64,000 nucleotides of DNA, taken from contig NC_086097.1 in NCBI RefSeq assembly GCF_963921235.1, positions 56,854,001 to 56,918,000 of the forward strand. The letters run 5' to 3'. The notes below the pieces were generated by a model. That model searched no databases. It worked only from the letters and a program-made list of their open reading frames with translations, and was not told the origin of the DNA. Source of the DNA: Mobula hypostoma. Taxonomy: Eukaryota. Position numbers and translations under genes: made by a program. Shown here one piece after another: positions 213-19,793 of the stretch (the stretch's first letter is position 1; each line of letters begins with the position of its first letter).

Positions 213-288
213 CTGTAAAGTCCCAGACTCGAATGGTGCTATCTGATGAACCAGAGCAGATTGACTTCTCATTAAACTTCAAACAGTA
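213..288 (-). CDS. F-box/WD40 gene exon 10 (YCLKFNEKSICSGSSDSTIRVWDFTG); gene continues beyond the window
   Basis: Acceptor tccctgcag, donor G|gtgtga, WD40 consensus SGSSD..IRVWD. Confidence 0.9.
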
Positions 289-689
289 CTGCAGGGAATA
301 AAATCAAGAGGTGTGAGAAAGGTCATATATAAATTCCGGATAAGAATTCTGCGATTTTTGGAAAATAACAATCAAAATATCAAAGTATAACAAGGAGTAT
401 TTCTGGATGAAACTTAGAATGGAATTCTCAAGCAGAAGATGATAGGGAACAAGTATTTAAAGGATAGGACTCAAAGAAAAGTACACAAAGAAAAAAATCA
501 TGCTGAATATATAACGAGTCAGAGGTATAATTTGATGGTAATCATCAAGCAGTCAGTATGACAGATAGAATTTAAGTTAGGAAGAGTACTGGTTCTTCAG
601 TAACAAGGTATAATCACCTGAAAGTCAAGGTTCTTCCACTACCATGACATCAATGGACAAAGCTTATAGTTACTGAGGGATCTTGTTTC

Positions 690-1215
690 TGAGTGATCTG
701 ATGTTCCCAAAGACTGGAAGGTGGTGAAAGTTTCATTGTTTAAGAAGGGTAGTAAGGAAAAGCCAGAGAATTACAGGCTGATTAGCCTGACATTAGTAGT
801 GGGAAAGTCACTGTGGGATAGGATCTATCAGCATTTAGTTCGATGCAGTTTGATTAAGATGAATCAGCTTGGCTTTGTCAATGTCAAGTTGTGCTCAGCA
901 AGCCTTTTAGAGTTTGTTGAAGAGGTAGCCAAAAAGGTAGATGAGGGTTCAGTAAAAGATGTAGTCCATTTGGTCTTTAACAAGAACTTTGACCAGGTCC
1001 CATATGGAAGGCTGGTCTGGAAGGTTAGGTTACTTGGAGTCCAGGGAGAGCTAATACATTTTACTTTAACATCTGAAGGTTGCTTCTTGGAATAGAAGCC
1101 AGTAACTGGTAGTGTGCCACAGGGGTTGGTGTTGAGACCATTATTTATGTAAGTAATTTGGATGAAATACACAAAGCTTAATCAGTACGTGTGGGTGAAA
1201 CAAAATTGGATGAGT
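690..1215 (+). mobile_element. CR1 LINE RT fragment, decayed
   Basis: LFKKGSKEKPENYRLISLT...FDQVPYGRL. Confidence 0.85.
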
Positions 1216-1284
1216 GCCAGAGGAAGTGGTTGCTGGATCACAGATGCTTTATGTTTGAAGAAAGAAAGAATACAGTAGTTATTA

Positions 1285-1595
1285 TTATATAACCATCAGG
1301 TTTCTTAACTGGAATGGATAACTTCACTCACTACAATTCTGAACAGATTCTACAATCTACAAACTCACTTTCAAAGACTGTACAACTTCTGTTCTCAATA
1401 TTACATTTTTCATTTGCATGATTTGTCTTTTACACATTGGTTGTTTGTTTGTCAGTCTTTATTTACAGTATGTATAGTTTTCTATCATTTCTATTTTATT
1501 TCTTTATTTTTCTGTAAATACCTGCAAAAAATGAATGTCAAGGTAGCAAATTGCAACTTGTACATACTTTGATAATAAAATTTACTTCTGTCTCT
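1285..1595 (+). mobile_element. Rex1/Babar-like LINE 3' tail
   Basis: Ends with the tactttgataataaa..tttact tail shared with other copies in the window. Confidence 0.7.
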
Positions 1596-2129
1596 TTGTG
1601 GCATAAAATACTACAGGAATCACATGGGACTATGACTCAAGATAATCTTTAGAAGATCATTATTCTGAAGACTCCACATGTTGCTGTGTTTCAGCAGTAA
1701 ATAAGCAGATGCAAGTCCTAAAGTGTGAGCTCAATATTACAGTGGAATGCTGTGTAAAGATTTCATGAGTTGTATTGATGCATACCACCTGCTCTAGGAA
1801 AATGCATATGTGATGTCAGCTTGGAGACAGTTGAGAATTCTCTTTTCAGAACACTGGGGCACTAATTTGGCAACATGATAATATTATGACAACAACCGCG
1901 AGAAAGTGAAATCCTTTCTTTATAATGGAAAAGAACAAGTCAGAATGTAGGTCCAAATCAGCACAATTTAAAACTCCTATAACTTCACCACTTTTATAGT
2001 ATCCTACTGTGTCACTTGTGGTTGGTTGAAAGTCCATATTACACAAACAGATGCATTTTTGACTTTTTGTGTATATCTGTACATAGATTGCTGTATAATG
2101 TTAGTGATAGTCCAAGTAGCAAGAGTATT

Positions 2130-3190
2130 ATACAAGGGAAACTCCTGCTTGAGAACTGACTTGTATCCGCTCCAATTTGCTTTACTGGATCAACAGGTCC
2201 ACAGCAAATACCATCTCATTGGCTCTTCACTCAACCCTGAAATATCTGGACAGCAAAAAATGCATACACCAGGATGTTCTTTATTGACTACAGCTCAGCG
2301 TTCAATACCATCAACCCCTCTAAACTAATCAATATCCTTCAAGACCTTGGCCTCAATACCTCCTTGGGCAATTTCCTCACTTGCAGACCCCAGCCAGTTT
2401 GGATTGGCAACAACATCTCCTCCACAATCTGCTTAGCCTCTGCTCTTCTCAGTTTACATTTATGACTATGACTACGCACAGCTCCAATACTATATTTAAG
2501 TTTGCTGACAACAGCACTTTTGTTGGCCAAATCAAAGGTGATGAATCAGCATATAGGAGGGAGATTGAAAATCTGGTTGACTAATCTTAACCCTATCCCT
2601 AATGGATAGTGCCTCAACAACAACCTCTTACTCAATGTCAGCAAGACCAAGGAGCTGATTATTGACTTCAAGAGAAGGAAACCAGAGGTCCATGAGCTGG
2701 TCCTCATCGGGGGATCAGAGGTGGATAGCTTCAGCATTTTTAAATTCCTTGGTATTATCATTTCAGAAAACCTGTCCTAAGCCCAGCACATCAGTGTAAT
2801 TATGAAGAAAGCACTTCCTTAGAAGTTTGCAAAGATTTGGCATGACATCTAAAACTCTGACAAACTTCCGTAGATGTGTAGTGGAAAGTATATTGACTGG
2901 CCCCATCACAGCCTGGTATGAAAATACCAATGCCCTTATACAGGAAATCCTACAAAAAATAGTGAATATGGCCCAGTCCATCAGGGGTAGAGTCATCCCA
3001 CCCTGGAGCACGTCTGTATTTGCAGTTTGTTGTCCTTTACACACTGGTTGTCCACCCGGTGGTTGCAGTCTTTCATTGATTCTATTATGGTTATTGGATT
3101 TATTGAGTATGCCCGCAAGAAAATTAATCTTAGGGTTGTATATGGTGACATATGTACTTTGATAATAAATTGACTTTGAACTTTGAGTTT
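2130..3190 (+). mobile_element. Rex1/Babar-like LINE, RT and 3' end, decayed
   Basis: [26 protein letters not shown]; ttgaactttga tail. Confidence 0.85.
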
Positions 3191-18000: not shown

Positions 18001-18280
18001 AAGCAACACACACAAAATGCTGGATGAACTCAGCAGGTCAGGCAACATCTATGGAAAAATACAGTTGATGTTTTGGGCTCAGACCCTTCAATCCTCCTTC
18101 CCCTCCCCATACCTTTTTATTCTGGCATCTTCCCCCTTCCTTTTCAGTCCTGAAGAAGGGGCTTAGTCTGAAACGTCGACTGTTTGCTAATTGCCATAGA
18201 TGTTGCCTGGCATGCTGAGTTCATCCAGCATTTCGTGTGTGTTGCTTTGGATTTCCAGCGTCTGCAGAATTTCTTGTGTT
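18001..18280 (+). mobile_element. Penelope-like fold-back (inverted plus direct pseudo-LTR)
   Basis: About 90-bp arms aagcaacacacacaaaatgctggatgaactcagc / gctgagttcatccagcatttcgtgtgtgttgctt. Confidence 0.85.
18145..18182 (+). ncRNA. Minimal type I hammerhead ribozyme motif in a Penelope repeat
   Basis: CAGTC-CTGAAGA-AGG..TCT-GAAA-CGTC^GACTG; stem I 5 bp, core intact. Confidence 0.65.
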
Positions 18281-18873
18281 AATAATGATTAGGATCTGTA
18301 TTAATACTGTATACTTTCATTTTGTCTTCAAACTTTGTTTTTCAATAGATGATTTAAATGACCAAGATTCAAACTCAAGTTATCAGTCATCCAGTTATCC
18401 TGTTGCTTCACTTGTGGGCTAGGCATGCTGCCAGATCTGGGGTTGGATCTGAAACACCAAGGGTCACAAACATAGTAGGTTTGTGGCTATTGCAGGAGTC
18501 CAGAGTATTTGAATATTCCAATTCTTTTAAATTTGGGTTTATTGGAACACTTATGATATTAGCATGTAACATGTAAAAAAGATGAAACAAAAATGTGTTT
18601 GGGTATTGATAGGAATAATGTCCAATGGTTTGGGAATTCTGCTGATCTGACGTAATCAAAATATCAAGTGTGCTGAGTTATTGGAGTTTTACTGTGTTAT
18701 AGAATAGGCTAGCATCAAACCCAATCTGTGCTGTTGTAATCTGTCTTTAACTGTCCTTTAAACTATGGTTGAAGAGTACAGTAAGTTTTTTTTCATGCCC
18801 AATAAGTACACGTGTTTGTAAAAAAAAACCACATGAACATGTAACAATAAAATGCTTAGAGATTTTAATTTAC

Positions 18874-19052
18874 CATAGAATATTAGTGTTTGCGAATTCC
18901 CTCCATGATTTGTTACAGCACGCCATTCTGAATAGATCCTCTGCAGATAAATATGAAAATATTCTTTCCACCAACTCTCGGGGTAGCGTTGACACAAAAT
19001 CAATGGATAACATGGGACACAATTCATTGTAGATCTCTTTCAGCTGTGGCAG
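18874..19052 (-). CDS. F-box/WD40 gene exon 2 (F-box: DFVSTLPRELVERIFSYLSAEDLFRMACCNKSW)
   Basis: Acceptor ttttctag, donor TG|gtaaat, canonical F-box consensus. Confidence 0.93.
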
Positions 19053-19264
19053 CTAGAAAATAAAGGCCATCAGATGATTAGATATTCAAAAGTGGTGTGT
19101 TATAAAGTAATATTCAAAGACACTCAAACTCACTTATCTTTCTGTTGTCATGGTGTACAATGACTGACACAGACTTCTAGTAATAGTTCAATTTTAATAT
19201 TCTCAGCCTTGCTTTAAAATCTCTCTTTACTGCCTCCCTTTCTTTACTCTGCATTCTGCATCAC

Positions 19265-19580
19265 CGAATCAGTTCAGAGTTGAGTGAAATTATCCACGTC
19301 GCTTCTGGAGCTGATGTTGTAGGCTAATGACCTTTCCTGAACTTGGTGGTGTGGGACCTAAGGCTTCTGTACCTCCTGCTTGAAGGTAGTATCGAAAAGA
19401 GGGCATGGCCTGGATGGTGAGGGTCTTTGCTAATGGATGCTGCTTTCTTGTGGCAGCGCTCTATGTAAATATAGGGAGGGCTTTCCCTATGATGGACTGG
19501 ACTGTGTCCACCAGTTTCTGTACAGTTTTTATACTTGAGATTTGGTGTTTCCATGCCAACCTGTGATGCACCCAGTTGGG
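19265..19580 (-). mobile_element. Rex1/Babar-like LINE 3' fragment
   Basis: KAASISKDPHHPGHALFSILPSSRRYRS. Confidence 0.85.
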
Positions 19581-19685
19581 ATCAAACGATATTTGTTCAA
19601 TCCCATTTGTTTGCAAGGTTTAATATGATAACGACTGTTTTACATTCCGCTACCGATCAGTGCACGACCTGAGCAAGACTCTCAC

Positions 19686-19793
19686 CTGACAAGAGCGAAG
19701 TAACCGCGACATCACCTCACTCTGCTGCTTTACTGTCAGAGAGCTGAATGCAGAAGCGATCAGGTCCATTTTCTCCTCGGGTAACCCCTCCAT
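19686..19793 (-). CDS. F-box/WD40 gene exon 1 (MEGLPEEK...LLRSCQ)
   Basis: ATG in gaaATGG context, donor CAG|gtgag, phase 0, CpG-rich surroundings. Confidence 0.82.

Follow-up and report, generated by a model that had tools for sequence, protein, structure and literature searches.

FBXW7, a tumor suppressor, and beta-TrCP are the two best-studied animal F-box/WD40 receptors, and both read phosphodegrons. In the passages of PMC8797792 on the pocket, Fbw7 contacts phosphate through R465, R479, R505, and Y519, and passages of PMC3419727 and PMC8797792 describe several neighboring arginines that serve this receptor. According to passages of PMC3419727, Met30 binds Met4 via the hot-spot residues Leu, Asn, Gln, and Tyr, so an FBXW pocket that does not rely on arginine has functional precedent. 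Here we describe a gene of the ray Mobula hypostoma whose product is, by sequence comparison, a member of an animal-wide F-box/WD40 orthogroup mostly auto-named "FBXW7-like." The window is the whole stretch of 64,000 nucleotides that was analyzed (NC_086097.1, positions 56,854,001 to 56,918,000), and coordinates are window positions unless stated otherwise.

Gene structure

Ten exons on the minus strand lie in the window; every intron is GT..AG with consistent phases, and the joined sequence is 406 codons with no stop, as the earlier note had described (ten phase-consistent exons without lesions). All 12 motifs quoted there were found, nine within single reading frames and three (DEIQHL, EVVNCC, and GDVYCL) formed across junctions. 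Its ten exons and at least six WD40 repeats were correct but incomplete: exon 10 finishes at a splice donor and the gene goes on past the window edge in two further exons to the left, giving 12 exons, 487 aa, and eight blades.

The coding part of exon 1 (19686..19793, minus strand, as for all features below) encodes aa 1-36, the first two helices of a D-domain-like region. Its 5' UTR extends to at least 19891 in contig X2 of the presumed RNA runs, and an in-frame stop lies six codons 5' of the ATG. Exon 2 (18874..19052, aa 37-95) holds the end of the D-domain-like region and the F-box, which ends in exon 3 (16057..16145, aa 96-125) ahead of a family-specific linker. Exon 4 (12609..12794, aa 126-187) contributes linker, the WKxxYxxxxxLxxNWxxG helix, and the start of blade 1, and exon 5 (11434..11552, aa 188-227) encodes blade 1 and the start of blade 2. 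Blades 2-3 come from exon 6 (8053..8204, aa 228-277), which contains D262 and L276; exon 7 (6520..6592, aa 278-302) ends blade 3 and starts blade 4 with D299, E300, and Q302; and exon 8 (5711..5822, aa 303-339) provides blade 4 with W316 and E339. Exon 9 (4119..4243, aa 340-381) encodes blade 5 and the start of blade 6, including D380, and exon 10 (213..288, aa 382-406) continues blade 6 from Y382 and terminates in the donor without a stop. The first part of intron 10 (1..212) leaves the window toward exons 11 (G000:C1:56851176-56851291, aa 407-445; blade 7 with R421, D435, and K437) and 12 (G000:C1:56849142-56849270, aa 446-487 and the stop), both outside the window; exon 12 encodes blade 8, which bears R455, H461, P475, and E476 and is the signature of the family. 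If exon 10 were read through, translation would stop at window position 118 after 438 aa; we rejected this form because the orthologues run on in exons 11 and 12.

Spliced contigs, from runs presumed to be RNA although none of those listed is recorded as such, join exons, which speaks to the junction expression check proposed earlier; junctions 10-11 and 11-12 were not directly seen in contigs. Annotated proteins of rays and sharks match the joined product at 85% identity across 406 aa, and this match, together with the contigs, indicates that the exon chain is not a chance assembly. The exon differences listed for run X4 (at least 17) comprise at least nine synonymous and seven nonsynonymous codons, too few for any inference.

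Domains and fold

The F-box proposed in the earlier note was confirmed by a PF12937 match on exon 2 (43.6 bits against a cut-off of 24.3; E 2.4e-11), with PF00646 at 42.4 bits, and its core is kept across the family (P60 in 43/45, L71 in 44/45, and W96 in 45/45). In the Narcine orthologue P0002, which is 86% identical, PF00400 (WD40) matches seven stretches, and the AF2 model (pLDDT 91) is an eight-blade propeller whose top Foldseek matches are Skp1-Fbw7. Residues 50-487 of this model superpose on Fbw7 275-703 with VIA Z 43.4 and rmsd 2.7 over 410 residues, and a profile of the family runs collinear with human Fbw7 across all blades. Blade-by-blade sequence scoring against Fbw7 was uninformative for register (offset means 49-53), and we therefore take the register from the alignment of the whole chain together with the fold. 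Exon 1 alone gave no Pfam family and no PDB match, NCBIfam returned no family for any of three proteins, and ESM Atlas nothing beyond generic FBXW and WD40 clusters.

A profile of the D-domain-like region matches Met30-, Cdc4-, and FBXW2-type N termini (best E 5.5e-9, against 0.096 for the best of 147 decoys); the region is absent from all named spiralian members and from two starfish. Homodimerization through residues 5-51 is predicted by a model of P0002 1-104, which scored 0.33 against 0.04 for the best control and barely exceeded the mark of 0.32, with contact agreement among runs of at least 61% and partner pLDDT of at least 55. That mark was attained by 21/30 solved pairs and 0/23 single chains from microbes, and by 17/29 eukaryotic pairs but just 1/7 lacking an older solved relative. 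Because the D-domain dimers of Cdc4 and beta-TrCP already have solved structures, the pass may reflect likeness to these.

Relation to named FBXW families

We built a tree of 41 rows (55 aligned, 16 near-redundant dropped, and two added; FBXW4, 5, 8, 9, 10, and 12 absent), in which the gene falls in an orthogroup of its own with support 100/100, excluded from both the Fbw7 plus Cdc4 clade (98/96) and the Met30-like clade (100/99). For an early-animal duplication from FBXW7, which would make the family sister to animal FBXW7, the AU test gave p 0.283 and thus no rejection. The family gene occupies one locus in the M. hypostoma genome. FBXW7-type loci lie on C9 and C21, the beta-TrCP D domain PF12125 matches only two loci (C21 and C22), neither of which is the studied gene, and a presumed FBXW2-like gene on C67 has a long branch that does not join the clade. 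The earlier proposal of a lineage apart from FBXW7, BTRC/FBXW11, and FBXW2 thus agrees with the tree and with the presence of those genes at other loci, and the orthogroup is almost certainly a distinct one. A blade-8 profile splits 96 of 331 proteins (50-83 bits; many of these had themselves gone into the profile) from the rest (at most 13.7; the ray's own FBXW7 at 1.3).

The closest described relatives share much of this architecture. With FBXW7/Cdc4/Archipelago the protein has in common the D-domain-like region, F-box, linker helix, and collinear eight-blade propeller; in the PDB, the F-box exon matches FBXW7 best, and an aromatic is retained at Y519 (W316). Unlike FBXW7, it has R465, R479, R505, and R543 substituted, shares 0/7 approximate intron positions, and belongs to a separate clade at about 28-30% identity. 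beta-TrCP (BTRC/FBXW11) likewise has an N-terminal dimerization region (putative in our protein), an F-box, WD40 repeats, and an R1 Arg in the penultimate blade, but its propeller has seven blades rather than eight, its hot spots are net basic, and the fold match is poorer (TM 0.52-0.60, compared with 0.75-0.77 for Fbw7). The fungal Met30/SconB proteins gave the best D-domain profile matches and have near-neutral to acidic hot spots (-1); they form a separate clade, and Met30 carries a long blade-5 insert and lacks a blade-8 counterpart in the alignment.

Distribution and synteny

The orthogroup spans sponge to sharks and lungfish; identity to P0002 is 64% for lungfish and about 39% for sponge, and a comparison running from sponge through lamprey gave 40-54%. 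In word-seeded searches limited to lengths of 267-853 aa and 195-622 aa, no named protein from tetrapods, teleosts, or ecdysozoans was among the family matches listed, and mammals, birds, teleost fish, and insects yielded no member. The loss in mammals suspected earlier is therefore in line with what we found, but the apparent loss extends beyond that group. A profile search of 1.84 billion representatives was swamped by long WD40 proteins (three of the 150 best rows were full-length members: P0020, P0255 from jellyfish, and P0278), making it uninformative on range or loss.

The locus lies between ACTR10 and PSMA3, the latter being the neighbor named in the earlier note. A Pfam actin search gave a single weak match at ACTR10, whose identity rests on other evidence. 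In human and chicken, gene lists of the region contain ACTR10 and PSMA3 but lack any F-box gene, and no human FBXW gene is known to lie on chromosome 14. Since orthologues stand in RefSeq as "F-box/WD repeat-containing protein 7-like" or "uncharacterized" (XP_069773006.1, Narcine; XP_041070118.1, Carcharodon; XP_043929670.1, Protopterus; XP_035677993.1, Branchiostoma), the gene model is already predicted in databases, and "FBXW7-like" is a best-hit label. Our literature search found no paper treating the orthologues as a family or studying any one of them; the sole "fbxw" passage of PMC4729200 concerns the fgf8 cluster, and passages of PMC13061254 do not list FBXW genes.

The top-face pocket

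The Fbw7 arginine triad is replaced in the ray protein by D262 (at R465), L276 (at R479), and Q302 (at R505). Across the family, the R465 position is D/E in 35/47 and R in 5/47, R505 is Q/E in 39/48, S/A/D are commonest at R479, R543 is V, and Y519 is W in 46/47. We defined hot spots as 24 R1-2/R1/D-1 positions by a sequence rule, not coordinates, taken from passages of PMC3419727. Their net charge is negative in 43/43 rows with at most one gap (5/48 partial rows dropped), with a mean of -2.6; FBXW7 scores +2, beta-TrCP +4, and two Met30-like proteins -1.

A patch of conserved basic residues lies on blades 7-8 (R421 in 45/46, K437 in 41/44, K/R438 in 43/44, R455 in 43/46, and H461 in 36/46), blade 1 has R/K180 in 31/47 rows, and Y382 is kept in 45/48. 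In the alignment, conservation is shown to concentrate on blades 4-8, with a peak in blades 7-8 (mean 0.73 vs 0.53-0.59 for blades 1-4). The earlier description of a propeller lacking the phosphodegron-binding arginines holds for the Fbw7 triad, and its "single nearby Arg" for the six blades then seen; because the unseen blade 7 bears the near-invariant top-face R421 with conserved Lys and His nearby, a claim of no arginines is overstated. Similarly, an acidic or neutral top face fits the hot spots, but given the patch on blades 7-8 the surface is bipolar, not simply acidic.

Discussion

The protein is very probably an SCF ubiquitin-ligase substrate receptor, as judged from its sequence. Because FBXW7's phosphate-gripping arginines are missing, it probably recognizes another kind of signal, one without phosphorylation; a role as a non-phosphodegron reader is probable, and the chances that the target is specifically a basic or terminal degron are evenly balanced. 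Our best explanation, which we hold with slightly better than even confidence, is that this SCF receptor uses blades 4-8 to bind a degron that is not phosphorylated and is either terminal or Lys/Arg-bearing, not an Fbw7-type phosphodegron. The F-box would dock onto SKP1-CUL1-RBX1, and an acidic arc of D299, E/D300, E339, D/E380, D435, and E476, with W316 and Y382, would grip a free amine or the side chain of a basic residue. The lone conserved R421 may pair with a neighboring acid or a substrate carboxylate, and the bound protein would be ubiquitylated and then degraded.

The conserved residues of blades 6-8 also lend themselves to a different reading, which we regard as unlikely though worth weighing, in which the anion pocket has shifted from blades 3-4 to 6-8 (Y382, R421, K437, and H461), the acidic arc picks adjacent basic residues, and the protein is still a phospho- or C-degron reader. 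The strong retention of these residues and of R455, the peak of conservation on blades 7-8, and the R1 Arg in the penultimate blade of both beta-TrCP and the P0088 family would fit such a shift; the basic residues of blades 7-8 with R/K180 would suffice for an anion site, and passages of PMC9098119 describe beta-propeller C-degron receptors. The family, however, has one R1 Arg only, flanked by the conserved D380, D435, and E476, and its hot spots are net negative in every row scored, whereas Fbw7 uses several neighboring arginines. That the propeller instead has a non-degradative role or holds one conserved folded partner in a stable complex, as an adaptor or SKP1-occupying decoy with no short degron, seems to us improbable: a single locus, 40-54% identity from sponge to lamprey, and a highly conserved blade 8 would suit a fixed partner, but both the linker helix and the core of the F-box are kept as in Fbw7 and conservation falls on canonical peptide-binding top-face positions.

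It is very improbable that the gene is a diverged orthologue of human FBXW4, 5, 8, 9, 10, or 12 and hence no orphan. These genes are outside the tree, and the homologue searches were word-seeded and length-limited, with FBXW10 exceeding both limits; yet no named tetrapod protein appeared among the listed matches, which reached lungfish at 64% and sponge at about 39% identity to P0002, FBXW8 aligns with just 18-20% identity, and the human and chicken ACTR10-PSMA3 lists contain no F-box gene.

An extension of our preferred reading, which we rate as less likely than not, is that this SCF family is as old as animals, arose from an Fbw7-like scaffold by reversal of pocket charge, and reads a degron class new for F-box/WD40 proteins, for example a basic motif or free terminus held between the acidic arc and one arginine, possibly with phosphorylation as an off switch; its loss from flies, worms, zebrafish, and mammals would then explain why it has stayed hidden. 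If true, a third receptor family built on this scaffold, with the opposite pocket charge, would widen the SCF degron code and point to a degradation pathway apparently dropped by the standard model animals. "FBXW7-like" database entries in animals that carry the family are often not FBXW7 and can mislead expression and selection studies.

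Gene structure and expression

The motifs quoted in the earlier note, which had described an intact, ten-exon F-box/WD40 gene, lie on the minus strand of the window (G000:C1:56854001-56918000, in the Mobula hypostoma genome), where a choice of AG/GT boundaries indeed joins ten phase-consistent exons (19793..213) into 406 stop-free codons. With exon 4 as query, five proteins were retrieved, of which four come from rays or sharks and carry the name "FBXW7-like", and aligning these to the window and 60 kb of flank revealed two additional exons left of the window. With exact boundaries, the gene comprises 12 exons encoding 487 aa. 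It is single copy in this genome, and its product is 86% identical to the Narcine orthologue (P0002, XP_069773006.1), 71% to Callorhinchus, 54% to lamprey, 51% to Nematostella, and 40% to the sponge Ephydatia. Blade 7, encoded by exon 11 (L002:7176-7291, minus strand), has no Asp at the canonical tetrad position, which R/Q436 occupies; D435 precedes it by one residue, at top-face position D-1.

Four sequencing runs from four studies were used, all guessed to be RNA and none on record as such. Contigs from two of these presumed RNA runs join exon 1 to exon 2, with zero differences (X2 record 14) or two (X1 record 7). X4 record 23 (1351 nt) has, among the matches listed, successive pieces on exons 1, 2, 4, 6, and 9, with gaps of the size that exons 3, 5, and 7+8 would fill. 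This contig extends 193 nt beyond exon 9, in agreement with exons 10 and 11 (192 nt together); the exon 10-11 and 11-12 junctions are thus backed by its length and by annotated orthologues, not directly.

Genomic neighborhood and family range

The gene lies between ACTR10 (plus strand, L003-L005, G000:C1 ~56.82-56.84 Mb, left of the window), which flanks its 3' end, and, as previously proposed, PSMA3 (plus strand, window 39734 onward, into L009-L010), which is divergent from it and has a CpG-rich first exon. Published gene lists, in the portions accessible, give ACTR10, PSMA3, ARID4A, UNQ9438, TIMM9, and KIAA0586 for a human 14q23.1 gain (PMC2358878) and TIMM9, ARID4A, PSMA3, ACTR10, and SLC35F4 for a chicken 100-kb window (PMC9850194). 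No F-box gene appears in either list, although such lists may omit unnamed loci; this is consistent with loss in place.

A tRNA-Lys(CTT) gene (window 20185-20257, minus strand) is found ~300 nt upstream of the known 5' end of the transcript. Between the F-box gene and PSMA3 there are another tRNA-Lys gene and one untyped tRNA-like gene (29543-29629 and 29893-29966, both plus). A long low-complexity tandem array (26683-27943, plus) has open frames in all three plus-strand frames. Decayed fragments, which we take from their translations to be LINE-like reverse transcriptase, occur at, for example, 8400-10600, 43760-46819, and 56908-58698; the first interval is densely covered by repeat contigs from the presumed RNA runs.

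Searching with P0002 gave 504 matches, and reading the best 120 of these identified 53 family members, below which identity drops to ~23-37%. Named members among the matches listed include sharks, rays, chimaera, lamprey, lungfish, and paddlefish, as well as amphioxus, tunicates, echinoderms, hemichordates, molluscs, an annelid, nemerteans, cnidarians, and a sponge; no named tetrapod, teleost, arthropod, or nematode member was among them. A search with the lungfish C terminus (30 matches, 43 candidates) likewise returned none from these four groups. Since it also missed lamprey and molluscs, and its unnamed matches were unassignable, loss of the family in these groups is likely rather than demonstrated. 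The only two bony-vertebrate members found, P0018 (lungfish) and P0025 (paddlefish), have a partial model in one case (355 aa, lacking the F-box) and a divergent N terminus in the other, which may reflect annotation or decay.

Relationship to other FBXW genes

Elsewhere in the genome there are two FBXW7-type loci (C9, 127.30-127.33 Mb; C21, 188.00-188.05 Mb), each with 52-82% identity per exon to an insect FBXW7; mammals have one FBXW7 gene. Two beta-TrCP D-domain loci lie on C21 and C22, and an FBXW2-like gene is on C67. In an unrooted 41-row IQ-TREE tree covering types other than FBXW4, 5, 8, 9, 10, and 12, a branch with 100/100 support sets the 24 family rows off from Fbw7+Cdc4 (98/96), Met30-like proteins (100/99), beta-TrCP, and FBXW2. 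None of the 11 intron positions matches those of FBXW7 or beta-TrCP, the comparison positions being approximate. An AU test did not reject grouping the family with animal FBXW7 (p 0.283), so an origin by early-animal duplication, or an older one, may be entertained. Hidden orthology with a human FBXW we consider very improbable. The automatic label "FBXW7-like" also covers a second, separate FBXW type, P0088 (Ornithodoros); it has seven blades, is sister to beta-TrCP (98/89), and shares with it a V-R-D hot-spot set on the penultimate blade.

Predicted fold and N-terminal region

An AlphaFold2 model from a 44-row alignment with P0002 as first row (pLDDT 91) has three N-terminal helices, an F-box, a linker helix, and eight blades, and its best Foldseek matches are Skp1-Fbw7 complexes. 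By VIA, residues 50-487 superpose on Fbw7 275-703 (Z 43.4, rmsd 2.7); generic eight-blade propellers tie with this score but cover the propeller alone.

The N terminus shows homology to the D-domain-type regions found in Met30-, Cdc4-, and FBXW2-type proteins. When two copies of P0002 1-104 were modeled together, the score was 0.33 versus 0.04 for the best control (interface residues 5-51, contact agreement at least 61%, pLDDT at least 55), a marginal pass that may originate in already solved dimers of D domains. Of 48 rows, 31 carry the region, and some of the remaining 17 are partial; all named spiralians and two starfish lack it. These molluscan, annelid, nemertean, and starfish members (P0036-P0039, P0041-P0043, P0046, P0053, P0017, and P0034) start at or just before the F-box. 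Presence or absence of the D-domain-like region possibly provides a natural monomer/dimer contrast.

The putative substrate pocket

In a collinear alignment with the family profile, the phosphate contacts of human Fbw7, which in the part of the source available are R465, R479, R505, and Y519 (PMC8797792), correspond to D262, L276, Q302, and W316. Family-wide the positions are D/E (35/47), mostly S/A/D, Q/E (39/48), and W (46/47), and the earlier claim that the gene lacks the phosphodegron-binding arginines therefore holds for the Fbw7 triad across the family. It does not extend to the whole propeller, as the two blades outside the window carry a conserved basic patch. At 24 hot spots, assigned by the R1-2/R1/D-1 sequence rule (PMC3419727, as far as accessible) and not from a computed surface, all 43 scorable rows had a negative net charge (five of the 48 aligned rows were dropped as partial), in contrast to +2 for FBXW7 and +4 for beta-TrCP; Met30-like proteins score -1. 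Conservation is concentrated on blades 4-8 and includes acids (D299, 47/48; D/E300, 48/48; E339, 44/48; D/E380, 48/48; D435, 43/46; E476, 40/46), basic residues (R421, 45/46; K437, 41/44; R455, 43/46; H461, 36/46), Y382 (45/48), and P475 (45/46).

The protein is most likely an SCF receptor. Its F-box would dock on SKP1, the D-domain region is predicted to dimerize, and substrate would be held on blades 4-8, where conservation lies. We lean toward an acidic arc that, with the Trp and Tyr, would best fit a Lys/Arg side chain or a free amine, R421 being neutralized by adjoining acids or gripping a carboxylate. Among other E3s, N and C termini are bound by acidic and basic constellations, according to the accessible part of one account (PMC9098119). 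The conserved basic residues could alternatively form a relocated pocket for phosphate or carboxylate, which seems rather doubtful beside the uniformly negative hot spots, and we give still less credence to a non-degradative partner. Literature searches, at the level of listings and mostly of open papers, turned up no description of the family, although supplementary orthogroup tables may list it. Its gene models are already in RefSeq under an automatic name; the subfamily itself, which we read as an SCF receptor lineage, is an undescribed FBXW type with a charge-reversed pocket.
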